Shown: positions 4,041 through 39,675 of the stretch, piece by piece
Layout of the letters: each line of letters begins with the position of its first letter
How positions within the stretch are numbered: position 1 is the stretch's first letter
Source of the DNA: a virus
Length of the DNA: 39,675 nt
IMG/VR virus record: IMGVR_UViG_3300034010_000197
Direction: 5' to 3' (one strand)
Made by a program: the position numbers and the translations under genes
The notes under the pieces: generated by a model
Told to the model about the DNA's origin: nothing
What the model saw: only the letters and a program-made list of their open reading frames with translations
The model's database searches: none

Positions 4041-4340
4041 ATGTTAGATAGAATTAGGAATATATTTAATTTATCAAAGCCTAAATCAAGTAATATTGAG
4101 CTGGCTAAGGCCTATCAAGATGTATTGGCAACTGAATCTGGTAAGAAGGTCTTGACCGACCTCCTAAAATTTAGTAAAATATATGACTCAACGTTTGTAC
4201 CAAGCGATTCACATACAACTGCCTTTTACGAAGGTATGCGTAGAGTAGGCTTAAGAATAGCTTCGTTGATAAACGTAGACGTTAATGATAAACAAAACCA
4301 CGGGGAAATAAATGATGGATTCGAATCAAACGATCTCTAA
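4041..4340 (+). CDS. Hypothetical head-module protein
   Basis: 99-aa ORF between the portal and scaffold genes. It overlaps the scaffold start by 29 nt. I recognised no motif. Confidence 0.5.
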   Translation: MLDRIRNIFNLSKPKSSNIELAKAYQDVLATESGKKVLTDLLKFSKIYDSTFVPSDSHTTAFYEGMRRVGLRIASLINVDVNDKQNHGEINDGFESNDL

Positions 4341-5305: not shown

Positions 5306-6172
5306 ATGTCTTATACTATGGACTCAATCTTTGTAAATGCTTATAATGCGATGTTGCATCATTTGTCTGAACAAAGAGGATCAAAACTAAAAGGCCTCTT
5401 CCAAGAGGAACAAGCAAAGGGTGAAAAACACTTCTTTGATAGAGTCGGTGCGTTCTCCGTATCCGAAATCAACAGCTTGGCATCGCCCGTTCTATTACAG
5501 GACAGCTCTATGTCAAGACGTATGGCTACCTTAAAAGCTTACGACGCCGCTACATTAATACACGATGTCGAAAAGATGAAAATGTTGGTAGACCCTACAA
5601 ACGACTACGTTGTTAAAATGATGAATGCTCATGGTAAAAACTATGACTTAGCATTGATCAATGCCTTGATTGGTACAGCAGCTACAGGTAAAGAAGGCGC
5701 AGGCTCACAAGCTTTCGACTCAAACCAACAAATAGCTCATGGATCTACAGGCCTAACAGTAGCTAAACTTCTACAAGGCTTACGGATATTGGAAAGCAAT
5801 GATGTAGACATGGATTCTAATAATGTTTATTTATTAGTTAACGCTCGTGGTCGCGAAGACTTACTTGCTGATTCAAACTTTACTTCACATGACTTCCAAA
5901 ACGTTAAGGCTTTGGCAGGTAGAGAGTTACCTTCTTTCAGAGGTATACAATTAGTACACACTGAAAGATTACCAGCTCACACAGCCGGCTCAGTATACAG
6001 AGCAATCCTCTGCACTGATAACGCTCTTAAAGTTGCTAAAGGCATGGATCCAGTTGTTGATATCTCTCAACGTAAAGATATCCAAGATCTACCATTCCAA
6101 ATCTATACAAAACAAGCATTCGGTGCTGTACGTATGGAAGAAGGTCTAGTAGTTGACATCTTGTTCCAATAA
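5306..6172 (+). CDS. Major capsid protein, T7 gp10-like
   Basis: 288 aa. Colinear by eye with T7 gp10 (G-E-K..F...G; TLKAYDAATLIHDVEKMKM...DLALINALIG; C-terminal FQIYTKQAFGAVRMEEGLVV). GAGGA SD. A 118-nt untranslated leader precedes it. Confidence 0.8.
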   Translation: MSYTMDSIFVNAYNAMLHHLSEQRGSKLKGLFQEEQAKGEKHFFDRVGAFSVSEINSLASPVLLQDSSMSRRMATLKAYDAATLIHDVEKMKMLVDPTNDYVVKMMNAHGKNYDLALINALIGTAATGKEGAGSQAFDSNQQIAHGSTGLTVAKLLQGLRILESNDVDMDSNNVYLLVNARGREDLLADSNFTSHDFQNVKALAGRELPSFRGIQLVHTERLPAHTAGSVYRAILCTDNALKVAKGMDPVVDISQRKDIQDLPFQIYTKQAFGAVRMEEGLVVDILFQ

Positions 6173-10010: not shown

Positions 10011-10461
10011 TTTAATTATACGACCATATAGAATAGAAGACGTATTTCAAATAAGAGTGCGTGACGAGCAGATAGAGTTTCATAGATCTCATAGGGGTTT
10101 AATGGATTATGCCATAAGTATAGCTAATGGTTATATGCCTATAACAGTTACAACTATTGATAATGAAATTGTTCTTATAGGCGGATTGATTCCGTTATAC
10201 CTAGATAACGCCGAGGGCTTCTTTTTACTTAGTGATACGTTTGAGCATCACTATTTGAAGAACGCACTACTATTGACTAAATCAATTAAAAAGTATATAA
10301 TTAGGTCTCCATTCAATAGGATACAGACTACGGTAAAGCAAGACTTTGCTAAGGCCGAAAAGTTTGTAAAACTACTCGGATTAGAGAAAGAGGGATGCCT
10401 AAGAAAAGGCGGTTGGGATAAAAAAGATTTGTATATTTACGGATGGGTAAGAAATGTTTGA
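10000..10461 (+). CDS. gp13-like virion-assembly protein with a GNAT-like fold signature
   Basis: ATG at 10000 overlaps the upstream stop. FNRIQTTVKQDFAKAEKFVKLLGLEKEGCLRK...DLYIYG looks like the C-terminal part of an acetyltransferase fold. It occupies the T7 gene 13 position. Confidence 0.5.
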   Translation: MHSDLIIRPYRIEDVFQIRVRDEQIEFHRSHRGLMDYAISIANGYMPITVTTIDNEIVLIGGLIPLYLDNAEGFFLLSDTFEHHYLKNALLLTKSIKKYIIRSPFNRIQTTVKQDFAKAEKFVKLLGLEKEGCLRKGGWDKKDLYIYGWVRNV

Positions 10462-11086
10462 CGTAAGTTTTTTTAGAGAGTATTCTGGATTTACTCCTAG
10501 TAGCAATAAATCCAATATGTATGACTTCCAGAGAAGTCAGATTACAAGCCAGGCCAATAATAGCTTCTTTGATATAATAGGTGGTATTGGGTCTAAACTA
10601 TCTAATGCGTGGGCCGCTAGGGATTACGCTGATCAAGTAGCGGAAGCTAAGGCTATATCGTATCAAAATGCACAGGTAGTAGCTGAGGCACAGAAAGAGT
10701 ACAATCTAAAAGCCGCAGAGTTTCAAAACGAACTGCGTCAACGTAACTCTAATATATTAATGAATAACGCGTACAACCTACGTAGCTTTGCTCTACAAGA
10801 GAAAGAGGATGGGTTTGCGTATGCAATGAGGGTTAGCGGTGATTATAAGGCTGAGTTTGCCTCATCTGGAGTACAGTTAAATACAGGATCAACCAGAGAT
10901 GTTGAAAATTTCTTAATTGATAGTGCTATGACTAAATCTGATAGGACATATAAAGATAGGTTAAATCAGATATCTGAAGTTGTCAATAAAGCTCAGTCAG
11001 AAGCTCTCGCAGGTACATATGAACTGTGGAGTGCTAAAGAACGTAATAGATTTATAGATGCTAACGCTCAAATGGTACAATACTAA
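10454..11086 (+). CDS. Internal virion protein (T7 gp14-like by position and size)
   Basis: 210 aa, coiled-coil-rich, translationally coupled on both sides, and first of three core-protein genes after the gp13-like gene. Confidence 0.5.
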   Translation: MFDVSFFREYSGFTPSSNKSNMYDFQRSQITSQANNSFFDIIGGIGSKLSNAWAARDYADQVAEAKAISYQNAQVVAEAQKEYNLKAAEFQNELRQRNSNILMNNAYNLRSFALQEKEDGFAYAMRVSGDYKAEFASSGVQLNTGSTRDVENFLIDSAMTKSDRTYKDRLNQISEVVNKAQSEALAGTYELWSAKERNRFIDANAQMVQY

Positions 11087-19123: not shown

Positions 19124-20493
19124 TGACCTATATAGACAGGCGTATTGTAAGATTAATACCGGTTGGAACTACTACATTTAGTTCTACTGTGGGCGGTCTT
19201 GTACCAGCTTCTGGATTTGATGACGATAAATTTCTATGCAGTGATAGAACCTGGAAATACGTAACGTCTACATCTATATCTGATTTTAATACGGCTGTGC
19301 AGGCCTTGATAGACGCTTCAGGCGGTGGGGCTGGAGTAACTGATGGTGATAAAGGGGATATCATAGTATCTGGATCAGGATCTGTATGGACTGTGGATTC
19401 TTTACCAATATCTAGAATAACAGATTTACAGACTTCCTTAGATGCTAAAGTTGACGATTCACAAATATCTGCGTTTGGTGCAACTCTAATAGATGATGCC
19501 GATGCAGCTGCTGCTAGAGCAACACTTGAGTTAGGAACATTAGCGACACAGTCTGGAACCTTCTCTGGAACATCTAGCGGAACTAACACCGGTGACCAAA
19601 CAATAACTTTAACGTCAGACGTTACAGGGTCTGGTACGGGCTCTTTTGCAACAACTATTGCTGCTGGTGCTGTATCCCTATCTAAGATGGCTAATATGGC
19701 TACTGCATCTTTTCTTGGTAGAAATACTGCAGGAACTGGTTCTCCAGAGGTATTAAGTGCTTCAACAGCACGTACTATGTTATCTATAAATAACGTAGAG
19801 AACACTGCGCTATCTACATGGTCAGGTTCAACAAACATCACTACGCTTGGTACAGTAGCTACTGGAACTTGGAATGCTACAAACATATCCATAGGTAAAG
19901 GTGGTACTGGTGCTTCTCTAACTGATCCTAACGCGGACAGGCTAATGTTTTGGGATGATTCAGCTGGATCTGTAGCGTGGTTAACGTTAGGTACTAATTT
20001 ATCCATAACAGGCACTACTATAAATGCTACCGGAGGTGGTGGAGGTGGGCTATCAGATGGTGATTATGGGGACATAGTCGTATCTGGTACAGGTACCGTA
20101 ATGACTATAGATTCAGCCGCATCAATTCAAGTTTCTGAAATAGGAGTAGGATCTGCAACAAGCGGTTCTAATGTCTTACAAACTAATGGGGATTTATTAT
20201 TTGATGCTAATGGATCTGGGGACCTAAACGCTAACTTTAATAAGGATTCTTCGGGAGGAAGTGCGCAATTCTTCTTCTCAACGTCGTACTCTACTAGGGC
20301 TATACTAGGTACACAGGGAGATGATAACTTTACATTTAAGACATCTCCAGATGGCTCAACATTCTATACAGGATTGGTTATTAGTAAGGATAATGGTAAC
20401 GTAAACATACCTACAGTAATAACAGAACAGGATGCTAGGGTAGCTACTTTAGCAACTGCCTCTCTACTAACATTTGGCTTAACAATATATTGA
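19123..20493 (+). CDS. Tail fibre protein with an internal duplication
   Basis: 456 aa. Repeats GVTDGDKGDIIVSGSGSVWTVDS and GLSDGDYGDIVVSGTGTVMTIDS. AARATLELG and ARTMLSI motifs are typical of fibre repeats. Confidence 0.7.
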   Translation: MTYIDRRIVRLIPVGTTTFSSTVGGLVPASGFDDDKFLCSDRTWKYVTSTSISDFNTAVQALIDASGGGAGVTDGDKGDIIVSGSGSVWTVDSLPISRITDLQTSLDAKVDDSQISAFGATLIDDADAAAARATLELGTLATQSGTFSGTSSGTNTGDQTITLTSDVTGSGTGSFATTIAAGAVSLSKMANMATASFLGRNTAGTGSPEVLSASTARTMLSINNVENTALSTWSGSTNITTLGTVATGTWNATNISIGKGGTGASLTDPNADRLMFWDDSAGSVAWLTLGTNLSITGTTINATGGGGGGLSDGDYGDIVVSGTGTVMTIDSAASIQVSEIGVGSATSGSNVLQTNGDLLFDANGSGDLNANFNKDSSGGSAQFFFSTSYSTRAILGTQGDDNFTFKTSPDGSTFYTGLVISKDNGNVNIPTVITEQDARVATLATASLLTFGLTIY

Positions 20494-20500
20494 GGATTAA

Positions 20501-20905
20501 ATGGCAACTTCACCAAACTTTACTGCAACACCTAAAATCGCTTGGTCAGGAAACTTGACTACAGGTACTAACACTTATGATGGTACGTCTGGTACTACTG
20601 TAGTATTTACTGCTGGATCATCTGGATCTTTCCTAAGATCATTAGAATTAGAGGCTGCTGGTACAAACGTTGCAACAGTACTAAGGGTATTTATAAATAA
20701 TGGATCGGCTGTAGGTACTGCGTCAAACAACGCCTTAGTAATGCAATACTCTTTGCCTGCTACTACTGCCTCTGCTACTGTAGGAACTCCACATGTTACA
20801 GTCCCACTTAACTTGGCTATTCCAGCTAACTTTGTAGTGAGAGTTGTATTAGCTACATCTGTATCTGCCGGATGGCAAATATCATCAGTACACGGAGATT
20901 ATTAA
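20501..20905 (+). CDS. Hypothetical fibre-module protein
   Basis: 134 aa, beta-rich and Thr/Ser/Ala/Val-rich, with a GAGGA SD. Confidence 0.45.
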   Translation: MATSPNFTATPKIAWSGNLTTGTNTYDGTSGTTVVFTAGSSGSFLRSLELEAAGTNVATVLRVFINNGSAVGTASNNALVMQYSLPATTASATVGTPHVTVPLNLAIPANFVVRVVLATSVSAGWQISSVHGDY

Positions 20906-20906
20906 G

Positions 20907-21875
20907 ATGTACTTCATTAATGGTACCCCATCTATAGCTGATAAGATAAGGATAATCAAACCTGCGAGTGGTACGGCTGGTACTCAGAGTATGATACCAG
21001 TAACTATACCACAATGGGCTTCTGCTGTAATGATTATGGCTATTGGAGCTGGTGGGTCAGGAGCTGGTGGTGGAACTGCAGCATTAGGCGCTGCTGTAGC
21101 TGGAGCTGGCGGTGGTGGTAGCGGTGCGGTAGCTAAATTATTTATACCTACAATTCTATTACCTGGTGTTATATACGTAACTGGAGGTATTGGTGGCGCT
21201 GCGGTAGCAGCTAACACTGCTGGTAATGCTGGTACATCATTATACGTATTGGCCTATCCAGATACTTCGCTAACGGCTAACACTGTAATAATACGGGCCG
21301 ATGGTGGTGGTGGCGGTGCCGTGGCTGGTACTGCGGGTACAGCAGGTGGTGTTGCTACAGCTGCACAGACTATATACGGACAATCTGCTAACTTTGTTCT
21401 AGCTAACTCTGCAGCAGGTTATATTGCTGGTCAGGCAGGCGGTGCTGGAGCTTCGGGTGCTGTGGGTGGTTCTATAGCTATAGCTACTGCTGCTACATCG
21501 CCGTTATTTACAACTGCTGGAACAGCTGGTGGCGGAGTATCTGCTGCTAATGCTACCTTTGCTGGCGGAGCGATAACTGGTTCAGGATTATTATGGTCTC
21601 AGTATGCTGTGGCTGCAGCTCCTGCTGGAGCTAACGGATCTGGTGGAATGGATTTTACAGGATCGCTTTTTGGTAGAGCTACCAAAACGGCCTTGATTGG
21701 AACTGGTGGACTCGGTGGCGGAAGCGTTAGTGGGACATCTGTAACAGCTGGTAGCGGTGGTAATGGAGGACCTGGGTGTGGCGGCGGAGGTGGTGGAGGT
21801 GCCAATGGTACTACCGTTACAGGCGGTGCTGGTGGACGCGGCGGAGACGGATTAGTAATATTTGTATTTATTTAA
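20907..21875 (+). CDS. Glycine-rich domain protein (tail-fibre associated)
   Basis: 322 aa with long GGxGxG/AGGAGG tracts (GAGGSGAGGGTAALGAAVAGAGGGGSG ... GGNGGPGCGGGGGGGANG ... GGAGGRGGDGLVIFVFI), as in phage glycine-rich beta-helix-type domains. Confidence 0.55.
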   Translation: MYFINGTPSIADKIRIIKPASGTAGTQSMIPVTIPQWASAVMIMAIGAGGSGAGGGTAALGAAVAGAGGGGSGAVAKLFIPTILLPGVIYVTGGIGGAAVAANTAGNAGTSLYVLAYPDTSLTANTVIIRADGGGGGAVAGTAGTAGGVATAAQTIYGQSANFVLANSAAGYIAGQAGGAGASGAVGGSIAIATAATSPLFTTAGTAGGGVSAANATFAGGAITGSGLLWSQYAVAAAPAGANGSGGMDFTGSLFGRATKTALIGTGGLGGGSVSGTSVTAGSGGNGGPGCGGGGGGGANGTTVTGGAGGRGGDGLVIFVFI

Positions 21876-21884
21876 AGGTTTAGT

Positions 21885-22325
21885 ATGTTAGCGGGATTAA
21901 TATCGGGTGCTCTATCGCTTGCGGGATCTGGTGTAAAAGGATTCTTCGGAGTTAAAGAGCGTCAATTAGATACTGTACAAAGTGGGATATCAGCACTGAG
22001 TGATGCCAATTCATCTGCTGCACAGAAAGAAAGAGCTATAGCAGACATCATATCTTCAGAGATGCAGAGTGGGTATTGGTTAGCAGCTGTATGGCGTCCA
22101 ATGATAATGGTTGTATTTGCTGGATTGCTTGTGGCTTACTTCTTTGGATATACTACACCAAACTTAATGATGCCAATGCCAGCTAACTCAGTAATAGGTG
22201 AAATATTTAATTTACTTACTATTGGACTAACTGGTTATATACCTGCGAGGACTGTAGAAAAGATCGCTACGCAAATAAACATTGGTAGAGTTCTATCTAA
22301 ATTAATTGAAAAGAACGTCAACTAA
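21885..22325 (+). CDS. Holin, GTA-type 3-TM family
   Basis: 146 aa. Gly-rich N-terminus (MLAGLISGALSLAGSGVKGFFGV), then WRPMIMVVFAGLLVAYFF...IPARTVEKI, matching the W-R-P ... R-T-x-E-K pattern I recall for the 'holin of 3TMs for gene-transfer release' family. Confidence 0.6.
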   Translation: MLAGLISGALSLAGSGVKGFFGVKERQLDTVQSGISALSDANSSAAQKERAIADIISSEMQSGYWLAAVWRPMIMVVFAGLLVAYFFGYTTPNLMMPMPANSVIGEIFNLLTIGLTGYIPARTVEKIATQINIGRVLSKLIEKNVN

Positions 22326-22392
22326 TCGTCGTTAAGTAGATTTAGTATTATTACCATAAATATAAAGATTGATACTAACATTAATAGGTTCA

Positions 22393-22686
22393 TTATACTG
22401 CCTCCTTATTAAGTTCGTCTTCTAATAAAGCTAGTGCTAGGACTAAGCTGCAGGCTGCGTGTGCTATATGGTTTAAGCCGGACTCATCATCCAATTTACC
22501 TACATGTAGATATTTGTACGTATGTCTTAACGATGCTTCAATAAAGTCTTTTGGATCTCCCTGCTTCCAGCATTGATCATCTCCATATTTACTTATACCA
22601 AACTCTCTAACTTTAGATATAGCTTTTAAGGCCTGATATGGAATCAGGCTTAATCTCTCTTTACCCTGTACATCTTTAACTGTCAT
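22393..22686 (-). CDS. dATP/dGTP pyrophosphohydrolase-domain protein (phage dNTP-PPase N-terminal domain family)
   Basis: 97 aa. GKERLSLIPYQALKAISKVREFGISKYG...W...ASLRHTYKYL...DDESGLNHIAHAACSLVLAL fits the family pattern (K.R..L.P..AL..v..v..fG..KYG..NW......RH......D.ESG..HlaH.a.n). Confidence 0.5.
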   Translation of the reverse strand: MTVKDVQGKERLSLIPYQALKAISKVREFGISKYGDDQCWKQGDPKDFIEASLRHTYKYLHVGKLDDESGLNHIAHAACSLVLALALLEDELNKEAV

Positions 22687-22688
22687 GA

Positions 22689-23060
22689 TTAACCTTCTAT
22701 TTTAATTGTTGCAGTTTTTATTATATGTATGGTTCCTATTATATCACCTGGGTTTACTGAGAATGACGTATACTTATTATTTACTAACCCTAGTACAACC
22801 TCACCAGTAGACTCAGAGTCTAATATTGTTATCCCGTTTACCAATGATACGTTACTATTTAGTGATAAGAGTGGATCTATAGACAGTAAGCCTATATGAC
22901 CTTCTGGAAGTGAGATTTTAATACCTGTTGGTATTACTACTGTTGTACCCATACCTATTAATACTGGTAGATTTATACCAGCTGTAACTACGATTTGAGA
23001 ATCATCTGGTCGTATTATATGATCCATATGATTAGCTAATTTAGTTATTTTTACTTTCAT
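22689..23060 (-). CDS. Degenerate dUTPase-fold protein
   Basis: 123 aa, colinear with trimeric dUTPases. Motifs are eroded: AGINL (for AGxDL), IPTGIKISLPEGH retained, ILDSESTGEV (for IDSDYRGE), and no C-terminal GFGSTG motif V. Confidence 0.55.
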   Translation of the reverse strand: MKVKITKLANHMDHIIRPDDSQIVVTAGINLPVLIGMGTTVVIPTGIKISLPEGHIGLLSIDPLLSLNSNVSLVNGITILDSESTGEVVLGLVNNKYTSFSVNPGDIIGTIHIIKTATIKIEG

Positions 23061-24166: not shown

Positions 24167-24332
24167 TGTTGTTCTCCTTAGCATTATATCTATTGTACTT
24201 CTGTATTCTATAATTGTCAAGATTTATTATCTCAGCACCTAAATACTTCTTAGTTACTGGGTTTGTTTGTATTGTTGACAGCATAGATAGCTGCATCTTT
24301 AGTAAGTATTCCATAATCATAAACCAGTACAT
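24153..24332 (-). CDS. Hypothetical 59-aa protein (just under the ORF-track cutoff)
   Basis: TAATG stop-start overlap with the primase-helicase stop. GGGAGG SD 6 nt upstream. MYWFMIMEYLLKMQLSML... Confidence 0.45.
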   Translation of the reverse strand: MYWFMIMEYLLKMQLSMLSTIQTNPVTKKYLGAEIINLDNYRIQKYNRYNAKENNNDNN

Positions 24333-25987
24333 TAGAAACCTCCCTTACTTTCTACGGAAGCTTCTACAAGCTTACATCCGTTTGTTGTTTTAAACCCAAT
24401 AGTTCTTCCTAAACTTCCCTGCCTACTCTTTATAACTTCCACCACGAATGTTCCTGGTACATCATCGTAATAATCTGCTTCTATCTTCTCTCTAGGATTG
24501 TCTGGGTCTTTTACTTGTTTTACTGTTCCTGTAACTCTAGCTGATTCCTTATTCCACACTTTTAATATAAGCGCTGCTGTGAATGATATATCTTTACTCT
24601 CACGTGCTTGATCTTGGAATGGGGTATCGCCAGAGGTAAGCTGTGATCCACCTACTATAATATACTTAAACTCATTTGCTAGTTGTCTAAATTTCTCCAC
24701 TATGTTCTTAACTTCTAAGTATCTTTCCTGCCTACCTCTGTTCGCCGGTACTAACTGTAGGTAATCTATGAATATAACCACTTTGCGCTTAAGCGCTGCT
24801 AAATATCTTATTGTCTCCTCAACTTCTTCCACACCTACGTCAGCATCTGTTATGAATAACCTATCTTGTTGGATGTATTTATTTACTTCATCAACTTCTG
24901 GTAATTCATTATTCTGTATCTTTTGTTTATATACTAAGTCATCTTTATAACCTACTGGATCAAAGGCTGTACCATTTAGGGTCTTTATCAACCTTAGTAT
25001 AATCTCATCATTAGGCATCTCGTAAGATAGGTATATACATGCTGTATTAGTCTGTCTTAAAAGATTTGCCATCATGTTTATTTGGAATAGTGACTTACCG
25101 TGGTTGGTACGTCCTGGTATTACTACTAATCCGTGAGTCGGTAGCTTAATATACTTATCCATGCCTGGCCATCCTAGAGATAATCCTTCTTCGATATTCT
25201 CAAACATTGATTGTACATTATCGGTATCTATTATACCTCTAAGCATTGGCTTAGCTACATTCTTACGTGTCTTGTATATCTCAGCTATTGTATCCAAAGA
25301 TAAGTTATCTGCTAGATCTGTCTTTGGTGGTAAGCTACTCACATCTACTAAGTAGATACTCTTACTTTTTAATACTCCGGCTAGTTTATTCATTGCGTCC
25401 TTACCGGCTGGATCGTTATCTGGCCATAGTACTATATCCCTATTATCGATTTTGGCCCAATCCGCTAATAAGACTGCTGTCGCACCACCTTTCCAGCTAA
25501 CAACGTCAGCCTTAGTGAATATTTTAGCGGCTGCATCAGCTGCTTTCTCACCCTCTACCACTAGTACAGGGCGACCATCATCATGCAGGAACTCTGATCT
25601 GTACAAGAAAGGTCCCTTGGTATCTGATGTTACCCACCCCTCATCGGTAAGTATGAATGGGCGTATCCACTTATCATCTCCAGATCCACGTCTAGCTATC
25701 AACATTACGCATTTGTTATCTTTGTAATACTTATGGAATATAGTATCCTCTGATTCAAAGGGTACTTCCCCATCAGGTATTTCGATAGCGTCTGTAATCT
25801 GGACTTTTTCTATCTCATCCTTATCCATGACTATCCTCTCCTTTGTTTGTATGAATTCTTTATAGCCGCAGTGAAAGCACTTGTAGCTATATCCGGATTC
25901 AAATTCTATTACTGAGCATGTAGCTAGATGTTTCTTCTTTCTTGAAGATGCACATTTAGGACATTGCTGTAGGGTTTTATTCAACAT
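24332..25987 (-). CDS. Bifunctional primase-helicase, T7 gp4-like
   Basis: Zn finger CPKC...CFHC. TOPRIM VVVEGEKAADAAA and LWPDNDPAGKD. DnaB-type Walker A IPGRTNHGKS and Walker B VVIFIDYLQL. Confidence 0.9.
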   Translation of the reverse strand: MLNKTLQQCPKCASSRKKKHLATCSVIEFESGYSYKCFHCGYKEFIQTKERIVMDKDEIEKVQITDAIEIPDGEVPFESEDTIFHKYYKDNKCVMLIARRGSGDDKWIRPFILTDEGWVTSDTKGPFLYRSEFLHDDGRPVLVVEGEKAADAAAKIFTKADVVSWKGGATAVLLADWAKIDNRDIVLWPDNDPAGKDAMNKLAGVLKSKSIYLVDVSSLPPKTDLADNLSLDTIAEIYKTRKNVAKPMLRGIIDTDNVQSMFENIEEGLSLGWPGMDKYIKLPTHGLVVIPGRTNHGKSLFQINMMANLLRQTNTACIYLSYEMPNDEIILRLIKTLNGTAFDPVGYKDDLVYKQKIQNNELPEVDEVNKYIQQDRLFITDADVGVEEVEETIRYLAALKRKVVIFIDYLQLVPANRGRQERYLEVKNIVEKFRQLANEFKYIIVGGSQLTSGDTPFQDQARESKDISFTAALILKVWNKESARVTGTVKQVKDPDNPREKIEADYYDDVPGTFVVEVIKSRQGSLGRTIGFKTTNGCKLVEASVESKGGF

Positions 25988-26174
25988 AAATTTTACCAGC
26001 TAACTTACGTGCTCTTATAGATAGTACTTTAGATCTTTCCATCAATAGTTCTACATCTATGATTGCACTTGGGTTATCCTCATTTATAGCTCTAGATGCT
26101 CGTATTGCATCATCGACTGTTGTTTTCAACTCTGAGAGTAAAGTCTCTAGTGAGTATTGTTTAACTGTTTTCAT
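25977..26174 (-). CDS. Hypothetical protein
   Basis: 65 aa, helical, and coupled on both sides. Confidence 0.45.
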   Translation of the reverse strand: MKTVKQYSLETLLSELKTTVDDAIRASRAINEDNPSAIIDVELLMERSKVLSIRARKLAGKIYVE

Positions 26175-26557
26175 TTTATTCTAACTGTACGATTCTCTAT
26201 CTCGCCAGTTTCCCTATCAATTATTATTGCTTCGGCTATTAGGCTTCCCATATAATCGTATATGTGTTCGAATACAATGTCAATATCAAAATCTCTGCAG
26301 CTATATACGTCCATCATTAGTAAGTTTTCCTTATCCCATATATGATATGCTATATGTGACGTAGCTAGGTTTACAGATCCGGTTAATCCTTCGTTTCCTT
26401 CCTCGGATACATATACTGATCTGGCTGGAGTTACTTGTACCATTCCTATTTTCTCTATAAGGGATACCATGAATGTATTTCCTTGTGATTCAGATGTTAT
26501 AGGTAAGGTTACTTTAGCCTTTATTACTAAGTGTTTGTGTATTGGTTTGAATGCCAT
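26171..26557 (-). CDS. AdoMetDC-fold (SpeH-like, pyruvoyl-dependent) decarboxylase homologue
   Basis: 128 aa. GLTGSVNLATSHIAYHIWDKENLLMMDVYSCRDFD aligns with the prokaryotic SpeH core GVSGvvviSESHltIHTWPE....iDlftCG. The processing Ser-His is kept, but the preceding Glu is Thr. Confidence 0.6.
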   Translation of the reverse strand: MAFKPIHKHLVIKAKVTLPITSESQGNTFMVSLIEKIGMVQVTPARSVYVSEEGNEGLTGSVNLATSHIAYHIWDKENLLMMDVYSCRDFDIDIVFEHIYDYMGSLIAEAIIIDRETGEIENRTVRIK

Positions 26558-28652: not shown

Positions 28653-29123
28653 TTAGAAGTCGAAGCCGTCTCCTGTTGGTGCAAAGGCTTTATCTGATTT
28701 TTTAAATCCAGGTGCCTGGGCTACTGACTTAACTGCGGCTTGTCTTCCCATTGCCTTTTCTCCGTCATCATCTTCAGCAGGAATGCCTAACATTGCCTGT
28801 AGTCCGTATCTTCTAGCGTATGTTATTGCACTACCTAAGGCCTGTGGGTCGTTCTGTTTAGCTACAACTACGGGCGTGGTACCAGATATAAACTCACCAC
28901 TTTCGTGTACTAGCGTTGTCTCTACTCCTGCTTCTGTTACTATCTGTAGGAACGCGATTCCGTTTTTAAGTAATGGCTCTTTGACTACAGAGACTACCTC
29001 TGCTAAGTCGGCGTATTTAGATTTAAAGAATGGGTTAGCTGCATCTTTCTTAGCTGATCCCATTGCTAGCTGTGCTTTTACTAGAGCGGTAGCTAACTTA
29101 CCTATTGATTCACTTCTATTCAT
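28653..29123 (-). CDS. ERF-family single-strand annealing protein
   Basis: 156 aa. KDAANPFFKSKYADLAEV and AITYARRYGLQAMLGI are hallmark Erf motifs. Acidic C-terminal tail. Confidence 0.75.
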   Translation of the reverse strand: MNRSESIGKLATALVKAQLAMGSAKKDAANPFFKSKYADLAEVVSVVKEPLLKNGIAFLQIVTEAGVETTLVHESGEFISGTTPVVVAKQNDPQALGSAITYARRYGLQAMLGIPAEDDDGEKAMGRQAAVKSVAQAPGFKKSDKAFAPTGDGFDF

Positions 29124-29132
29124 AGTTTCCCC

Positions 29133-29717
29133 CTATAATATTTTTACTCTGTTATGTCCTATTCTCTCACGAATCTCAGTAGATGTCAAGATAATATCCA
29201 TACCATTAATGTATGCGAACTTCTGTTCTTCTGTGAGTGCTTTACGTGCTGATGTACTATTTAGTAAGTACTTGTTAAATGCTGTATTAAATTTAGGCTC
29301 AGTTACTAATAGCCCATCCCTATCTGCTATACGTGGGGTGTGGAATAGAACCACTGCTGGACTATTTATGTATATATGATCTGCGTGAGCTAGTATGATT
29401 GCCCCGGCAGACATTACATATTTAGGTACAATGATATCGAAGCTTCCTGTAATGCTTCTCAGTAGAGCAATTACATCTACCATAGATTCTAATTCTCCGC
29501 CATAAGTAGTTAGATTAATGCAGGGTTTGGAAACCTTTCCCAACAGCTGTTTCTTTACACTATCTACCATTTGCTGGTTTACCTCACCATTATATATTAC
29601 ACATGAATTAGCATCGATAGGCTCTGGCTCGGCGTATTGATAAGCAGTATAAATCATTGATGTGGATATTGCCACTGCGCTTACTAATACTATTGCTTGT
29701 TTGAATATTGTATTCAT
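29133..29717 (-). CDS. Membrane-anchored or secreted ClpP/SppA-fold serine protease homologue
   Basis: 194 aa. N-terminal hydrophobic segment AIVLVSAVAISTSMIYTAY. ClpP-like core INLTTYGGELES...VMSAGAIILAHADHIYI...VVLFHTP, with candidate Ser in MSAG and His in FHT. Confidence 0.55.
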   Translation of the reverse strand: MNTIFKQAIVLVSAVAISTSMIYTAYQYAEPEPIDANSCVIYNGEVNQQMVDSVKKQLLGKVSKPCINLTTYGGELESMVDVIALLRSITGSFDIIVPKYVMSAGAIILAHADHIYINSPAVVLFHTPRIADRDGLLVTEPKFNTAFNKYLLNSTSARKALTEEQKFAYINGMDIILTSTEIRERIGHNRVKIL

Positions 29718-31340: not shown

Positions 31341-31931
31341 CTACCTCTTTTTCATTATTGAATCTACTAGGCCGTAATTAACTGATGCCTCTGCATCCAA
31401 CCATAAATCTCTTGTAGTATCTTTTAGGATCTTACCAAGTGTGTGACCAGTATTATCAGCTAATATTTGCATAAGTTTTTTGTTAAGTTTTTTAGTGTGT
31501 TCGAACGATGCTTCCATATCCTGTACGTTACCACGCGTTCCTGCTGAAACCTGATGTAGCATGAACTGAGCATTTGGTAATATAAACCTTTTACCTAATG
31601 TTCCTGAGGAAGCTATTACTGAGCCCATAGAGCATGCGTATCCAGTTACAACTGTAACTACGTCTGGCTTGATTAGATTCATCGTATCTACTATAGATGT
31701 TCCTGATACTACGCATCCACCAGGTGAGTTAATGTACATATAAATATCAGCATTCTTATCTTCTGATTCTAATAATAATAACTGGGCTATTATATCATCA
31801 GACATTAAATGATTAACTTCGCCATTAACAAATATGATGCGTTCCCTGAGTAATCTGGAATAAACATCCATGGCTTTGACACCCTTGTCGCTTACTTCGT
31901 ATGTTGTTGGTATAATTCTATTGTTGGTCAT
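31341..31931 (-). CDS. clpP: ATP-dependent Clp protease proteolytic subunit ClpP
   Basis: Colinear with bacterial ClpP: RIIFVNGEV...IYMYINSPGG...GYACSMGSVI (Ser), FMLHQV (His), TRDLWLDAEASVNYGLVD (Asp). ATG at 31931 preferred over the TTG at 31949. Confidence 0.9.
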   Translation of the reverse strand: MTNNRIIPTTYEVSDKGVKAMDVYSRLLRERIIFVNGEVNHLMSDDIIAQLLLLESEDKNADIYMYINSPGGCVVSGTSIVDTMNLIKPDVVTVVTGYACSMGSVIASSGTLGKRFILPNAQFMLHQVSAGTRGNVQDMEASFEHTKKLNKKLMQILADNTGHTLGKILKDTTRDLWLDAEASVNYGLVDSIMKKR

Positions 31932-32592
31932 CGTTATCCTCATGATCAATTACTTTAGGTTCTTCTTTGGCTGGTATACTGTATTGTATCACATAATTCT
32001 TAACATCTTCGTTCTTGGTTTCTATACTAGCCTTACGTGGTGTTTGGTATACAGATAGTTCCTTAGCTAATTTCATTGCTGTACTTAAGTCTAAGTTAAG
32101 CTTACTACCATTTTTCAATATCAATTGTTGGAACTTAACTGCATCCCCATCAGCTTCATCAAATATTGCATTGAGTGTGGCCTGCTGATCTTTAGCTATC
32201 TTAACAGTTTTAGGTCTACCATTAGCATTTCCTGAAACACCTTTAACGAACTTACCTCTATTACGTATTGAGGTAAGACCTTCTATATCTTTTATAGTTA
32301 TAGATCCAGGCTCTGCCTCATAACGTATATCATTACCTTTTTCTTTATTCTGTGCGTGAGTTATAACCTGTAAGTTAGCTGGTACGTGTAGTCCGCATAC
32401 TATTGGATTATTAACTGGTATTATATGATCTACTTCATGCTGTACGCCTGTTGTTGCGCTTAGATGTTTTGCTAAATCATAGAACTTATTAATATGTGTC
32501 TTTTGTTCTACTGTTAGCCAGGAAGGGGTAGCTGATTTAAGGCTATCCCTACGTCCGGCGCATTTATCTTTGTTTTTATTTATGTCTGCCAT
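31918..32592 (-). CDS. HNH endonuclease fused to a C-terminal SGNxNGRPK (DUF5681/TerS-like) domain
   Basis: HNH core HEVDHIIPVNNPIVCGLHVPANLQVITHAQNKEKGN. C-terminal half FVKGVSGNANGRPKTVK followed by a helical region. Confidence 0.75.
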   Translation of the reverse strand: MADINKNKDKCAGRRDSLKSATPSWLTVEQKTHINKFYDLAKHLSATTGVQHEVDHIIPVNNPIVCGLHVPANLQVITHAQNKEKGNDIRYEAEPGSITIKDIEGLTSIRNRGKFVKGVSGNANGRPKTVKIAKDQQATLNAIFDEADGDAVKFQQLILKNGSKLNLDLSTAMKLAKELSVYQTPRKASIETKNEDVKNYVIQYSIPAKEEPKVIDHEDNDDQQ

Positions 32593-33378: not shown

Positions 33379-33564
33379 TTAAAAATGTCTACCATCTTCA
33401 AAATGATTAGGCATGTCAGTATCTGAGCCGATTAAGCTCTGCTCTATACCTAATTCTGGTGCAAAGATATATATTAGAGTTATAAGTACTACAGCAATTA
33501 TTACTAATGATAGTATTATTCTATTACTGTCCCTTTGTTGTGCTATATAAAATTCATCTAACAT
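33379..33564 (-). CDS. Small single-TM membrane protein
   Basis: 61 aa. IILSLVIIAVVLITLIYIFA. Confidence 0.5.
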   Translation of the reverse strand: MLDEFYIAQQRDSNRIILSLVIIAVVLITLIYIFAPELGIEQSLIGSDTDMPNHFEDGRHF

Positions 33565-33925: not shown

Positions 33926-33955
33926 TTGACAAGGCTATTTTAAACTTGCTATTAT
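33926..33955 (+). promoter_or_regulatory. Strong sigma70-type promoter A (rightward operon)
   Basis: cTTGACA (33926-31), 18 nt, TGcTATTAT (33947-55). The architecture is identical to promoter B at 39240..39269. Confidence 0.7.
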
Positions 33956-34225: not shown

Positions 34226-34498
34226 ATGACAGATAAATTTTCTATGATAGATAGGATGAATGAAGCCTTATCATTAAGGGACCACGAAGGTTTCTTTGTA
34301 CTATTAGATAAATACATAACAACCTACTACGATTACGGCTATGTATCAGATATGCTTGGTAATAGTACTAGTGCAGAAGTGCTTAGTAATATGGTTAGAA
34401 GCGGTAAAATAACACTAAGGATGCTAAATGTAGTATTACGTACGTTAAAAATCAAACTACGTCAAGAATCCCCACGCAATTATGAGGAGGTAGAGTAA
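34226..34498 (+). CDS. Hypothetical protein, possible HTH regulator
   Basis: 90 aa. AGAGG SD. MLGNSTSAEVLSNMVRSGKITLRMLNVVLRTL is weakly HTH-like. Confidence 0.4.
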   Translation: MTDKFSMIDRMNEALSLRDHEGFFVLLDKYITTYYDYGYVSDMLGNSTSAEVLSNMVRSGKITLRMLNVVLRTLKIKLRQESPRNYEEVE

Positions 34499-35088
34499 TG
34501 CAGATATCTTCAGCCGGAATTAGATTAATCATGGACTTAGAGGGAATCAGTAACAAACGGTACAAAGATAGTGCTGGTCTAGATACTATAGGTGTAGGTC
34601 ATCTTATATTGGATAATGATCCTAACTTGCATAAAGTTACTGGTATATCAAATAGTGATGAGGTTAAATCCCTTACTGACGCACAGATAATGAGGCTATT
34701 AGAGTTGGATTTGGTAGGTTTCATTGCAGAGATTGATAGGGTAGGAGTTATATTTACTCAAAGCCAGTTTGACGCACTAGTAAGCCTTGTTTTTAATATA
34801 GGCGTAGGAAACTTTAGAGGATCTACACTATTTAAATTATTATCTAGGCATAAAGGATCTAGGATACCAGATAGTAGAGTAGAGGATATATCACAAGAGT
34901 TTGGTAGATGGAGATATGCTGGTAAGAAAGAGATTAGAGGTCTTCTAGTAAGAAGATTGATAGAAACATTTATTTTCCTTGACAAAGCTAACGAGGATGC
35001 TATAATAGAAGGTGTAAGAGCTTCAGATATGGATTATATAATCTCCGTCTTTGAGGATTACAAAGTAAACAGAGCTCAACGAATTTAG
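34498..35088 (+). CDS. Endolysin, GH24 lysozyme (T4/lambda type)
   Basis: E15-x8-D24-x5-T30 catalytic spacing in LIMDLEGISNKRYKDSAGLDTIGVGH. QFDALVSLVFNIGVGNF. No N-terminal TM or SAR segment. Confidence 0.85.
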   Translation: MQISSAGIRLIMDLEGISNKRYKDSAGLDTIGVGHLILDNDPNLHKVTGISNSDEVKSLTDAQIMRLLELDLVGFIAEIDRVGVIFTQSQFDALVSLVFNIGVGNFRGSTLFKLLSRHKGSRIPDSRVEDISQEFGRWRYAGKKEIRGLLVRRLIETFIFLDKANEDAIIEGVRASDMDYIISVFEDYKVNRAQRI

Positions 35089-35097: not shown

Positions 35098-36105
35098 ATG
35101 ATTAACAATTTATACAACATCAGAGACTTAGATCCCGACGTTAAGGTTTATCTAGAACCACAGTTTAAACGTACACGTAAACCATCAGATTTGGTAGCAG
35201 AATTAGATAAGTTTGTTATTGGTCAAGATGCAGCTAAAAAGGCATTAGCTATTGCTATGGTTAACCATGAGGTTATAACTGAACACAATAGAAGGATTAA
35301 GAAGTCTGAAACTAGATTAAAGAAAACTAACTTAATGCTAGTAGGACCATCTGGTACAGGTAAGACATACTTATTAGAGGTTATAGGGCGTACATTAGGA
35401 AAGGACGTAATGGCCGTAGATATATCATCTTACACTCAAGCAGGCTATGTTGGTAGAGATCTAGACTCAATTATAACTGAGGCATGTGCTAGGTGCGACG
35501 ATAATCCCGAAAGAGTGGAAAACATGATCATCTTCTTAGATGAGGTTGATAAGCTATCAGACCAAGAGGGCGTAGGTAAGGTCGGTACATTGGCCGTACA
35601 ACAACAACTACTAACCCTTATTGAGGGTCAAGAGGAGTATAATGTAACCAATGATAAAGGACGCAATACCGGCTTCCAAGTCGACACCCGTAACATCCTT
35701 TGGGTACTAGGTGGCGCATTCACTGCGTACAGAGAATCAGCTATTAAGAAACTTAAGAACCCTACCACAATAGGCTTTGCTACGGAAACCAAAGAACCAG
35801 AAGAGTTTGTGTTCGATCAACAACAAGCTATTAAAGCTGGATTACTAAGGGAATTAGTAGGGCGTATAGGGCAAGTTATAGAGTTACATGACTTAAGCAG
35901 AGAAGAGTGCTACAGAATTATGGTAGAACCAGTAGATTCTATAGTTAATCAGTATAAGATATTAGGGGAATTAAGAGGATTAAATCTAACACTAACCGAG
36001 AAGGAGATCTGGGATATAGTGGACGAAGCAATCCGCTTAAAGCTTGGTGCACGTGGATTAAGGACACTGGCAGACAAGTTAATGAAAGATCGTATGTATA
36101 TATAA
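35098..36105 (+). CDS. clpX: ClpX-like AAA+ unfoldase lacking the N-terminal zinc-binding domain
   Basis: Colinear with ClpX: LDKFVIGQDAAKKALAIAMVNH, Walker A GPSGTGKT, pore-1 loop AGYVG, Walker B IIFLDEVDK, QVDTRNILWVLGGAF, IGF loop TTIGFAT, sensor-2 GARGLR. There is no Cys-cluster N-domain. Confidence 0.85.
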   Translation: MINNLYNIRDLDPDVKVYLEPQFKRTRKPSDLVAELDKFVIGQDAAKKALAIAMVNHEVITEHNRRIKKSETRLKKTNLMLVGPSGTGKTYLLEVIGRTLGKDVMAVDISSYTQAGYVGRDLDSIITEACARCDDNPERVENMIIFLDEVDKLSDQEGVGKVGTLAVQQQLLTLIEGQEEYNVTNDKGRNTGFQVDTRNILWVLGGAFTAYRESAIKKLKNPTTIGFATETKEPEEFVFDQQQAIKAGLLRELVGRIGQVIELHDLSREECYRIMVEPVDSIVNQYKILGELRGLNLTLTEKEIWDIVDEAIRLKLGARGLRTLADKLMKDRMYI

Positions 36106-36119
36106 GGAGGATTTAATAT

Positions 36120-36419
36120 ATGGCAGATCGTAAATTTATATCAAGATTGTTCCTAAACAAGGCAAAGGACTCAGGTAAAGTATATCTGAAAGGTACAATT
36201 AAGATAGCTAAAGAAGAACTAAAGGCCTTCCTACAGAGTGATGGATCAGTAGAGATACCAGTATTCGGGCACACATTCGAAGGTAAAGACAAACAAGACA
36301 ATGTATATAAAGCATATAATTTAGAGGTAGTATATGAAAGTAATTCTAAAGACGTTAAAGGTTTTAAAAAAGAGAATACTAAAACTTTTAAAAACAATTC
36401 TCTAGATACACCATTCTAA
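36120..36419 (+). CDS. Small Lys-rich protein co-transcribed with clpX (possible ssDNA-binding or partner protein)
   Basis: 99 aa. AAGGAGG SD. The C-terminus ...NNSLDTPF resembles the SSB-type D-x-P-F tip. A terminator follows. Confidence 0.4.
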   Translation: MADRKFISRLFLNKAKDSGKVYLKGTIKIAKEELKAFLQSDGSVEIPVFGHTFEGKDKQDNVYKAYNLEVVYESNSKDVKGFKKENTKTFKNNSLDTPF

Positions 36420-36452
36420 GATAAACATAAGACAATAATAGTTATACAAAGA

Positions 36453-36484
36453 GGGGGCTAGCAATAGTCCCCTTAAATATTTTA
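36453..36484 (+). terminator. Rho-independent terminator
   Basis: GGGGGCTA (36453-60), GCAA tetraloop, TAGTCCCC (36465-72). The stem is 8 bp including one G-U pair and is followed by ttaaatatttt. Confidence 0.7.
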
Positions 36485-37859: not shown

Positions 37860-38184
37860 GACAGAAGAGCAGTATAACCAGGTACTCAGGCGTATTGATG
37901 ATATATGGGACAATACTGACAACTATGATGAACTAGATAGATTATGTGCACTAGTTGAGGAATATGAAGCAAAACACTATAATATGGGAGATCCAACGAT
38001 GTCATATGATTACCTTCTATATCTAGAGAGGAGCTTGGATACAATAGAGAAGCAAGACGCCTTCATTGAGGCCTCATTTGAGGACTATAAGCGTCACCTA
38101 AGCCTAACCTACCTGATATCAGAGCTAGAATTCATAAATAAGATACGTAATACACATGCGAGGGCCAAAGATGGTACAGATTAA
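37846..38184 (+). CDS. Hypothetical protein
   Basis: ATG at 37846 (MNIIETEEQYNQ...) preferred over the GTG at 37834. Confidence 0.45.
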   Translation: MNIIETEEQYNQVLRRIDDIWDNTDNYDELDRLCALVEEYEAKHYNMGDPTMSYDYLLYLERSLDTIEKQDAFIEASFEDYKRHLSLTYLISELEFINKIRNTHARAKDGTD

Positions 38185-38599
38185 TATAACTAAGGCAGAT
38201 GGCGTAGATATACCTTCATATGCAACATTATATAGCTCAGGCTTGGATTTACAAGCCAATATAACTCAATCTATTATACTACAACCACTAGAACGTGTAA
38301 TTATACCAACTGGGATATCAATTGAGCTACCAATAGGATACGAAGCTCAGGTTAGACCAAGGTCAGGACTAGCAGCTAAGTATGGAATTACGGCACACTT
38401 TGGCACAATCGACTCAGACTATAGGGGTGAGATTGGAGTTATACTAATTAACATGAGTAAGGATGAGTTCGAGGTTAAGCCTCTAATGCGTATAGCACAG
38501 CTTGTAATAGCTAAGTATGAGTATGCTGATCTACATGTGGTTGAATCATTGAACGGAACCACAAGAGCTAGTAATGGCTTTGGATCAACTGGACTGTAG
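38171..38599 (+). CDS. dut: dUTP pyrophosphatase (canonical trimeric dUTPase)
   Basis: All five motifs are present: SSGLDL, RPRSGLA, GTIDSDYRGEIG, RIAQLVI, and C-terminal RASNGFGSTG. Start MVQINITK with a GAGGG SD. Confidence 0.9.
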   Translation: MVQINITKADGVDIPSYATLYSSGLDLQANITQSIILQPLERVIIPTGISIELPIGYEAQVRPRSGLAAKYGITAHFGTIDSDYRGEIGVILINMSKDEFEVKPLMRIAQLVIAKYEYADLHVVESLNGTTRASNGFGSTGL

Positions 38600-38855
38600 T
38601 AATAACAGTATGAATAACAGAGTTCACGTGTAGGATGAACCACAGTATACACACTACACTGTATTGTAGTCCTACATACCACAATGTGTTAATAATCAAG
38701 GAGATAGGCTGATGTTGGTGTGTACTATAGTGTACTACTGATCGGTGTCCCATAGCCCCTAGCTACTACAGTCTCCAAAAACAGGAAAAACCCTATCAAA
38801 CCCAGGCAGAATCTATCTGTGCGGGATTTGGATCTATATATAGTGTTTGCGGAAA

Positions 38856-38882
38856 GGGGTATACCCAAAATATCTGTACCCC
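38856..38882 (-). terminator. Weak candidate terminator of the short leftward unit
   Basis: GGGGTA (38856-61) pairs with TACCCC (38877-82). On the minus strand the stem is followed only by TTT. Confidence 0.25.
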
Positions 38883-38931
38883 CTCGGTGTGGCGTTAAAG
38901 TTGATGGTACTAACGGACAACAATATCGAAA

Positions 38932-39066
38932 TTATTTTTTATCAGCGGAATCACTAAGGTAGCTAACAAGGTCATTAAGATTGTCTCTAAGGTCAATCCT
39001 ATTGGATTCTTTCTCGAAGTCATCCATTATGATTAGTAAGTGAGCTAGAATTTGATCATCAGACAT
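38932..39066 (-). CDS. 44-aa acidic protein expressed from promoter B (not in the ORF track)
   Basis: MSDDQILAHLLIIMDDFEKESNRIDLRDNLNDLVSYLSDSADKK. AAGGA SD 6 nt upstream. It is the only ORF downstream of promoter B and its leader. Confidence 0.45.
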   Translation of the reverse strand: MSDDQILAHLLIIMDDFEKESNRIDLRDNLNDLVSYLSDSADKK

Positions 39067-39091
39067 AGCTATCCTTAAATTGTGAAGTATA

Positions 39092-39233
39092 CTCTATAGA
39101 CCGTTTAGTGAGTATCTTTATGTTTCATCGTGTTTATCGTTCTTGAGGAGAGGAGAGTCTAATCGAACTCGTGTAAGATGTGAGAACATCGATACTAGAA
39201 TTATCTAAAATTATAATCGTATCTTAATCTCAC
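39092..39233 (-). repeat. Conserved promoter-proximal leader element, copy B (inverted relative to copy A)
   Basis: Its reverse complement aligns with 33968..34118. The 37-nt core at 39160-39196 differs from copy A at one base. Confidence 0.7.
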
Positions 39234-39239
39234 TACAGT

Positions 39240-39269
39240 ATAATAGCAAAGTTAAATTGGTCATGTCAA
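39240..39269 (-). promoter_or_regulatory. Strong sigma70-type promoter B (leftward, faces promoter A's operon)
   Basis: On the minus strand: cTTGACA (39269-64), 18 nt, TGcTATTAT (-10 at 39245-40). The hexamers, spacing and flanking bases match promoter A. Confidence 0.7.
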
Positions 39270-39366
39270 GTAGTTTAACAAAAATTTAACATAACTATCA
39301 ATCACTAAATGTTACAAATTGTTACAATCAATGTAGTAGGGGGTTTCCACCCCACATAATAGAGTA

Positions 39367-39395
39367 TTGAGTAGAATACCTTAATGTGGTATAAT
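39367..39395 (+). promoter_or_regulatory. Sigma70-type promoter of the virion (late) operon
   Basis: TTGAGT (39367-72), 17-nt spacer, TGgTATAAT extended -10 (TATAAT 39390-95). It sits 24 nt upstream of the terL ATG and is followed by a GAGG SD. Confidence 0.7.
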
Positions 39396-39418
39396 AGACT
39401 CCTTATTCGAGGTATCCC

Positions 39419-39675
39419 ATGACAACTAAGATAATTAAGAGTCCATATCAACCTAGGCCATTACAAGCCGATCTACATAAGGACTTACGTAAATATAATG
39501 TGGTAGTTGCTCATCGTCGTTTCGGCAAGACATACTTCTGTATCAACGAGATGATCTTTAGAGCGCTACAGTGTCAGAAGAATAGACCGCAGTACGCCTA
39601 TGTTGCCCCAGAGAAAGCACAAGCTAAGAAGATTGTATGGGGTATAATGAAGGACAACACAGGCTTCCTGCCTGA
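39419..39675 (+). CDS. terL: Terminase large subunit, N-terminal part (continues at position 1 across the circular junction)
   Basis: ATG at 39419 after a GAGG SD: MTTKIIKSPYQPRPLQADLHKDLRKYNVVVAHRRFGKTYFC. Walker A is RRFGKT. It is in frame with ORF 17..1198 (offset 132 nt). Confidence 0.9.
   Translation, partial: MTTKIIKSPYQPRPLQADLHKDLRKYNVVVAHRRFGKTYFCINEMIFRALQCQKNRPQYAYVAPEKAQAKKIVWGIMKDNTGFLP
39535..39675. repeat. Second copy of the 141-bp terminal overlap
   Basis: Identical to 1..141 by direct comparison. Confidence 0.95.

Follow-up and report, generated by a model that had tools for sequence, protein, structure and literature searches.

Bacterial ClpX carries, on an AAA+ fold, the Walker A and B motifs, a GYVG pore loop, an IGF loop, an arginine finger and a sensor-2 motif, together with an N-terminal zinc-binding domain for adaptors and some substrates and an RKH loop for recognition of the ssrA tag. 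An engineered E. coli variant without the zinc-binding domain, ClpX-deltaN (residues 62-424), is active on ssrA-tagged substrates, and replacement of RKH by AAA abolishes breakdown of a substrate bearing the ssrA tag (PMC7112951). ClpX is also encoded, sometimes with ClpP, by jumbo phages and megaphages (PA5oct, Atu_ph07, the Lak phages, phage G and AP-J-162), where it is annotated and functionally uncharacterised. These jumbo-phage proteins are full length (408-419 amino acids, aa), retain both the Cys4 domain and the C-terminal strands, and cluster among cellular ClpX; the Lak phages keep RKH, Atu_ph07 has RKN in its place and PA5oct has lost the motif. Here we analyse a 39,675-bp DNA stretch (IMG/VR record IMGVR_UViG_3300034010_000197, hereafter the window), the complete, circularly permuted genome of an uncultured podophage, and its 335-aa ClpX-family unfoldase, which we call mini-ClpX. 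This protein naturally lacks the domain removed in ClpX-deltaN and, compared with bacterial ClpX, additionally lacks about 35 C-terminal residues and RKH, and has shorter pore-2, RKH and post-IGF segments. In contrast to the jumbo-phage proteins, it belongs to a separate, doubly truncated clade found in podophages of ~40 kb, where its gene and that of an endolysin are part of a fixed cassette.

Membership of mini-ClpX in the ClpX family is near certain by profile, sequence and structure. The best NCBIfam model was the ClpX equivalog NF003745 (8.8e-72, 242.2 bits), followed by HslU at 125 bits. In a sequence search of solved structures, the top 15 matches were all ClpX (4.6e-50), with residues 26-334 of mini-ClpX aligned to ClpX residues 65-385. 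An AlphaFold2 model built from 41 sequences (predicted local distance difference test score, pLDDT, of 86; predicted template modelling score of 0.83) was compared with the PDB using Foldseek, and the best 50 matches were all ClpX chains, with E-values down to 1.4e-26, template modelling scores of 0.7-0.8 and identities of 32-35%. HslU (ClpY), the nearest non-ClpX AAA+ relative, has the N-terminal part of the AAA+ module in common with mini-ClpX, but only the first ~100 residues (aa 29-128) align well; moreover, mini-ClpX has no HslU I-domain insertion and possesses an IGF loop, which HslU does not. Placement with HslU/ClpY or another AAA+ group is thus ruled out by the profile, sequence and fold matches. 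We aligned mini-ClpX and three jumbo-phage ClpX proteins with the E. coli ClpX reference sequence, checked against PDB 8e91, and the IGF of mini-ClpX fell on I268-G269-F270. In the AlphaFold2 model this tripeptide lies in a flexible, exposed coil predicted with low to medium confidence (residues 221-240, pLDDT 56-72), directly after a helix (residues 209-220), in agreement with the IGF loop listed in the initial annotation and not with a tripeptide outside any loop. The other hallmarks listed there, namely the Walker motifs, GYVG and GARGLR, were all located (Table 1). The nearest PHROG family is phrog_4339, whose listed function is unknown.

Mini-ClpX is reduced at both ends. Its first 60 residues contain no Cys, no CxxC...CxxC signature of the zinc domain was found in it, and its alignment begins at E. 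coli residue ~65, which bears out the proposal that the protein starts directly at the AAA+ module. The initial annotation had not described the other end, where the protein stops right after the sensor-2 helix, 19 residues past the GAR of sensor-2, while cellular ClpX runs on for 29-84 residues; the ~35 residues that are missing are those from which the small AAA+ domain builds its C-terminal strands. G-R-N stands at the RKH position (...DKGRNTG...), as annotated, in a loop 3-4 residues shorter than that of E. coli ClpX. The pore-2 loop, by 5 residues, and the segment following IGF are shorter as well, which the initial annotation had not mentioned either. All of these reductions, with the same end position, are present in six close homologues (43-53% identity, 331-338 aa), so the truncations characterise the family and do not stem from misassembly or frameshifts.

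Table 1. Features of the window discussed in the text.
Feature	Position	Strand	Remarks
T7-type portal	2444-4033	+	structural module
Scaffold-position gene	4312-5187		head module
Capsid	5306-6172	+	structural module
Tail	7377-10010	+	structural module
Primase-helicase	24332-25987	-	ends ...SKGGF
AdoMet-decarboxylase-like gene	26171-26557	-	
Erf	28653-29123	-	ends ...GDGFDF
Second Clp-fold serine protease	29133-29717	-	194 aa; Ser-His-Asp triad; N-terminal hydrophobic anchor/signal-like segment
Cellular-type ClpP	31341-31931	-	196 aa from ATG; TTG at 31949 would give 202 aa
ClpP triad Asp (TRDLW)	31401-31415	-	aligns with E. coli D171
ClpP triad His (MLHQ)	31551-31562	-	aligns with E. coli H122
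ClpP triad Ser (CSMG)	31623-31634	-	aligns with E. coli S97
224-aa protein	31918-32592	-	HNH-like N-terminus and weak DUF5681 match; overlaps ClpP start
61-aa membrane protein	33379-33564	-	ends ...DGRHF
Promoter-like site	33926-33955	+	11/12 consensus matches, TG-extended -10; consensus match only; upstream of cassette
90-aa first cassette gene	34226-34498	+	lacks a membrane segment; in most relatives a homologue comes first in the cassette
T4-lysozyme-type endolysin	34498-35088	+	196 aa; Pfam Phage_lysozyme 8.7e-26; phrog_7; no N-terminal membrane segment
Perfect sigma-70 consensus	34979-35006	+	TTGACA-16-TATAAT with TG; in endolysin 3' end, ~90 nt before mini-ClpX; consensus match only
Mini-ClpX	35098-36105	+	335 aa, ATG start; ClpX-family AAA+ unfoldase by profile, sequence, AlphaFold2 and Foldseek
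Walker A (GPSGTGKT)	35344-35367	+	mini-ClpX aa 83-90
Pore-1 (GYVG)	35443-35454	+	mini-ClpX aa 116-119
Walker B (IIFLDE)	35527-35544	+	mini-ClpX aa 144-149
Shortened pore-2 region	35548-35601	+	mini-ClpX
RKH-equivalent (NDKGRNTG)	35650-35673	+	mini-ClpX
IGF	35770-35778	+	mini-ClpX aa 225-227
Arginine finger (VGRIG)	35857-35871	+	mini-ClpX aa 254-258
Sensor-2 (GARGLR)	36046-36063	+	mini-ClpX aa 317-322
99-aa Lys-rich protein	36120-36419	+	17 Lys among 99 residues; ends ...SLDTPF
Terminator-like hairpin	36451-36474	+	after the 99-aa gene; weak T tail

A word-indexed search retrieved only six close clusters of mini-ClpX. In the alignment of this close family, the Walker A and B motifs, the arginine finger, sensor-2 and GYVG are invariant, as are G226 and F227 of the xGF tripeptide, and RKH is absent from all members. 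When 1.84 billion cluster representatives were searched exhaustively with a profile, ~25 additional proteins (318-353 aa) emerged with a match reaching their own C-terminus; in all, ~30 clusters (at 50% identity) have a truncated ClpX, on podophage contigs that mostly measure 37-42 kb where their length is known, a wide distribution that the initial annotation had not noticed. Across the ~25 further clusters xGF is mostly kept and pore-1 mostly reads G-Y-[VK]-G, with G-Y-I-G in P0130 and G-Y-H-G or S-Y-R-G in P0128. A neighbour-joining tree, midpoint-rooted and without support values, placed every protein with a short C-terminus outside the cellular ClpX group, in which the Lak, Atu_ph07 and PA5oct proteins were found. 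Three proteins (P0142, P0143 and P0148) are truncated at the C-terminus yet retain the N-terminal CxxC...CxxC, and C-terminal loss may therefore have preceded loss of the N-domain. A metagenome scan with the mini-ClpX family alignment gave only full-length cellular ClpX among the matches listed, and scans of IMG/VR returned only two close mini-ClpX loci and one unrelated ClpP locus. Our literature search brought up no description of such a clade of truncated ClpX proteins from small phages; phage ClpX and ClpXP being already annotated in jumbo phages and megaphages, the clade is a variant of that known kind. Separately, four of the best matches to the mini-ClpX profile (P0128, P0137, P0138 and P0140) contain several modules. 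One, 1238 aa long, carries three ClpX-like AAA+ modules in tandem and another, of 700 aa, carries two; the remaining two, of ~780 aa, have two modules behind a hydrophobic N-terminal region.

On the strand opposite to mini-ClpX, the window encodes a ClpP that had been called canonical in the initial annotation. Its match to Pfam CLP_protease (1.1e-66, 224.7 bits for a cut-off of 20.2), its end-to-end alignment with solved ClpP structures (5.9e-57), N-terminal loops included, and its intact catalytic triad substantiate this description. In the hydrophobic pocket, the site that accepts IGF loops in E. coli ClpP, Y60, Y62, F112 and L114 are kept, F82 is replaced by L and M92 by T, and the N-terminal axial-loop region is kept. 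ClpP-fold prohead proteases are common in phages, and the PHROG matches of this protein include head-maturation families (e.g. phrog_94, 8.1e-49), as would be expected of a ClpP-like head-maturation protease that happens to be encoded near an AAA+ gene. The protein nevertheless scored 239.9 bits on the NCBIfam model of the cellular subfamily, just under the cut-off of 249, versus 88 bits on the head-maturation model, and a gene located among early and replication genes, on the strand opposite to a head module that has its own scaffold-position gene, fits poorly with such a role. Together with the full-length alignment to solved ClpPs and the co-occurrence with mini-ClpX across lineages, these data make a prohead protease very improbable, in keeping with the initial annotation, which had disfavoured it.

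In 8 divergent lineages, the window included, a catalytically intact ClpP of the cellular type lies no more than 10 kb from mini-ClpX. Its placement varies: it may be on the other strand, or downstream with a DUF5681-type gene before it, or upstream in the same orientation. Identity is 43-63% among the phage ClpPs and 37-44% between them and E. coli ClpP, and the phage proteins have common derived features such as MAH[RQ]VSSG and Thr at position 92; this mutual likeness suggests that ClpP was inherited within the clade together with ClpX. In one lineage, L116 (ClpX at 10001-10963, ClpP at 7531-8163), the ClpX (P0145) has no xGF, and in the ClpP the pocket residues Tyr60 and Tyr62 are replaced by Arg and Val, a joint loss consistent with what docking of IGF into the pocket would predict.

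The best reading of these observations, and one that we consider fairly probable, is that mini-ClpX and the phage ClpP constitute a phage-run ClpXP with non-canonical substrate choice. This had been raised as a potential in the initial annotation, and it now receives comparative support from the co-occurrence of ClpP, the mutual likeness of the phage ClpPs and the double loss in L116. According to this model, mini-ClpX would form an ATP-driven hexameric unfoldase gripping substrates by its GYVG pore loops, and its IGF loops would dock into the hydrophobic pockets of the phage-encoded ClpP to yield a phage-specified ClpXP protease. Because mini-ClpX has neither the zinc N-domain, which serves adaptors and some substrates, nor RKH, which serves ssrA-tag recognition, it should not copy the specificity of host ClpX; the motor is expected to work while selecting other host or phage proteins than host ClpX does.

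Several observations weigh against this reading. Mini-ClpX scores under the curated ClpX cut-offs (242.2 versus 359 bits for NF003745, 206 versus 370.75 bits for TIGR00382). Absence of the C-terminal strands of the small AAA+ domain is a caveat with regard to ring assembly, and the pore-2 loop, which in E. coli ClpX contacts the N-terminal loops of ClpP, is 5 residues shorter than in that protein. The covariation of xGF with the pocket tyrosines is seen in a single lineage. Furthermore, in sublineage B (P0003/P0004/P0005) no canonical ClpP was found in the ~21 of ~39 kb examined, yet [I/M]GF (MGF, MGF, IGF) is kept, and ClpP thus appears not to be obligatory in cis. The partner in this sublineage would be host ClpP, unless a ClpP is encoded in the rest of the genome, which is syntenic with the tail module; the tail module of the window contains no ClpP.

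Retention of [I/M]GF in sublineage B would also be expected if mini-ClpX mainly targeted host ClpP, either redirecting it to substrates of the phage's choosing or competing for it and thereby shutting down activities of host ClpXP and ClpAP, such as the degradation of phage proteins or of antitoxin-based defence triggers, while the phage ClpP would add capacity. Cross-docking is plausible given that the pocket of the phage ClpP is near the cellular type, and removal of the N-domain and RKH while the ClpP-docking element stays fits this possibility as well. However, a pure competitor would not need a ClpP of its own, which most lineages have and apparently inherited with ClpX, and the intact Walker B, arginine finger and GYVG argue for an active motor rather than a decoy. 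Our host searches also brought no candidate forward: a scan of GTDB genomes with the capsid protein gave no match, and none of the 119 loci matching a degenerate DNA pattern for LW[VI]FGGAF encodes a relative. We regard a protein directed primarily at host ClpP as quite unlikely, and retain the phage-run ClpXP as the preferred interpretation.

Mini-ClpX occupies the third position of a fixed cassette: a small protein, the endolysin, mini-ClpX and a small protein with a tipped tail. As the initial annotation had it, the gene lies between the endolysin and a 99-aa Lys-rich protein, and a terminator-like hairpin follows. Its start is 9 nt past the endolysin open reading frame, and that of the 99-aa protein is 14 nt past mini-ClpX, with a strong AAGGAGG ribosome-binding site. 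We retrieved gene contexts for thirteen mini-ClpX clusters and observed a T4-lysozyme-type endolysin directly upstream of mini-ClpX in every ~40-kb lineage examined, frequently with an overlap, at a spacing ranging from a 4-nt overlap to 15 nt (70 nt once); the sole exception is L114, a 258-kb jumbo-phage-like contig. This linkage persists though the cassette has shifted relative to the other modules. In the window, L014, L111 and L115 the cassette diverges from the replication genes; in sublineage B, L110, L113 and L116 it precedes them in the same direction; and in L112 it comes after tail genes and a holin. Behind the linkage there may be nothing more than co-regulation, or a functional tie to lysis. 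Since the cassette heads the replication/recombination operon in most relatives, its expression is probably early or middle. Sites comparable to the promoter-like site of the window precede the first cassette gene in relatives, likewise as consensus matches only, and the perfect sigma-70 consensus inside the endolysin gene was not found at that position in the four related loci scanned (L001, L005, L007 and L014).

This gene order bears on a further explanation, in which mini-ClpX acts without ClpP as a remodelling chaperone, unfolding or taking apart specific complexes for replication/recombination or lysis, as host ClpX does on the MuA transpososome, ClpP being a separate accessory. The co-directional position of the cassette in most relatives, directly upstream of an operon of exonuclease, Erf, DNA polymerase and helicase genes, would suit such a function, and so would the lack of a visible ClpP in sublineage B and of xGF in the L116 ClpX. 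On the contrary, nearly all members keep xGF, even the sublineage devoid of visible ClpP, and ClpP accompanies mini-ClpX in 8 lineages. Moreover, the loss of xGF in L116 is paired with the loss of the pocket tyrosines, as expected if the contact matters elsewhere. A chaperone independent of ClpP consequently seems unlikely to us, and proteolysis by a phage-run ClpXP accounts better for these features.

A homologue of the 99-aa protein is encoded downstream of mini-ClpX in all ~40-kb lineages, as the second downstream gene in L113. Its AlphaFold2 model consists of a confident domain (residues ~1-72) of four strands and one helix, followed by a disordered tail (residues 75-99) that would serve as a flexible, Lys-rich linker. 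An alignment of twelve diverged members shows only one Gly and the C-terminal Phe to be invariant, and the L116 counterpart, although 196 aa long, has the same ...VPF end. Foldseek gave no significant match of the model to the PDB or BFVD, and no Pfam or PHROG family was matched. The initial annotation had suggested an adaptor or a substrate, with which the conserved position and the architecture are consistent. Tethered adaptors of the SspB type likewise combine a folded domain at the N-terminus with a flexible linker and, at the C-terminus, a short conserved peptide. The resemblance to the 99-aa protein is an architectural analogy only: no sequence or fold similarity was detected, and the SspB tether binds the zinc domain of ClpX, which mini-ClpX does not have. 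Tethering by SspB has been described (PMC9963277).

Because Erf and the primase-helicase also end in Phe, a role of the 99-aa protein in replisome contacts is just as conceivable. A 61-aa membrane protein ends in Phe as well, and in several of these four proteins the terminal residue follows acidic or Gly residues (Table 1). These ends recall the C-terminal Phe tails of T7 gp2.5 and gp4. The D-x-P-F end of the disordered tail, which resembles the tip of single-stranded DNA-binding proteins (SSBs), along with the fact that no SSB gene was recognised in the window, had also raised the idea of an SSB. This identification was not supported, as no oligonucleotide/oligosaccharide-binding fold was matched significantly in the PDB or BFVD, hhalign gave probabilities below 1% against E. 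coli SSB and T7 gp2.5, and no SSB family of Pfam or PHROG was consistently matched; the tail architecture and the terminal Phe, which are all that resemble SSBs, leave a weak possibility. Alternatively, the endolysin, mini-ClpX and the 99-aa protein might form one unit, in which the latter would be a tethered adaptor or built-in substrate docking on mini-ClpX by its Phe peptide and ClpXP would control the endolysin or another timing factor. We put this forward as a speculative and rather unlikely scenario; if true, the phage would encode an adaptor-protease system for timing lysis or for taking over the host.

Two further genes of the minus strand are of note. The gene overlapping the ClpP start has counterparts of the DUF5681 type directly upstream of ClpP in L110 and L113, and a few genes away in L014, L111 and L115, as detected by tblastn, with no Pfam match in one of the related-lineage gene tables. 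A second protein with a Clp-type serine protease fold, which is absent from the initial annotation, adjoins Erf in most lineages and has homologues in L001 (8038-8667), L005 (14526-15152), L014 (3633-4199, minus strand), L111 (12947-13504) and L115 (5720-6334, minus strand), with weak matches to NfeD, SDH and SppA-type proteases. The homologues likewise keep the Ser-His-Asp triad. The protein was rejected as a partner of ClpX because it bears an N-terminal anchor or signal-like segment and does not have the N-terminal loop and pocket residues of ClpP; it is probably a separate, extracytoplasmic protease.

The circular permutation of the window is apparent from its terminase open reading frame, which is cut at the window start (regions 1-1198 and 38156-39675) and continuous in other contigs of the same phage (L008 and L009), which run from dUTPase into a 437-aa terminase. 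A structural module on the plus strand is followed by a replication/recombination module on the minus strand, comprising genes for an exonuclease, primase-helicase, AdoMet-decarboxylase-like protein, DNA polymerase A, Erf and a YqaJ-type exonuclease, and a third gene block, on the plus strand, begins at 34226. The portal is ~40% identical to that of HTVC010P-type pelagiphages, and no near-identical phage or close DNA relative was found among GenBank phages. No tRNAs and no Rfam matches were detected in the window, and PADLOC reported nothing relevant. The AdoMet-decarboxylase-like gene, whose relatives match PF02675, lies beside the DNA polymerase gene throughout the clade. G+C content reaches ~45% over the last tail-module genes (20000-23000), compared with a window mean of ~38%, and the sign of both GC skew and AT skew flips at ~22.3 kb, the point at which transcription changes direction. 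Tyrosine-recombinase/integrase genes are present in L113 (7873-8811, minus strand) and L014 (5863-6714, minus strand), and part of the clade may accordingly be temperate; GTDB representative genomes yielded no prophage copy.

To date, only jumbo phages have had a ClpXP of their own annotated, and here a clade of ~40-kb podophages devotes ~4% of its genome to one. With its dedicated ClpP, mini-ClpX would be a natural minimal ClpX of ~330 aa, revealing what evolution can dispense with in this protein and offering a compact system for the study of degron recognition. The constant linkage with the endolysin and the tail-tipped protein suggests that proteolysis under phage control regularly accompanies infection, possibly employed in host takeover, counter-defence or timing.

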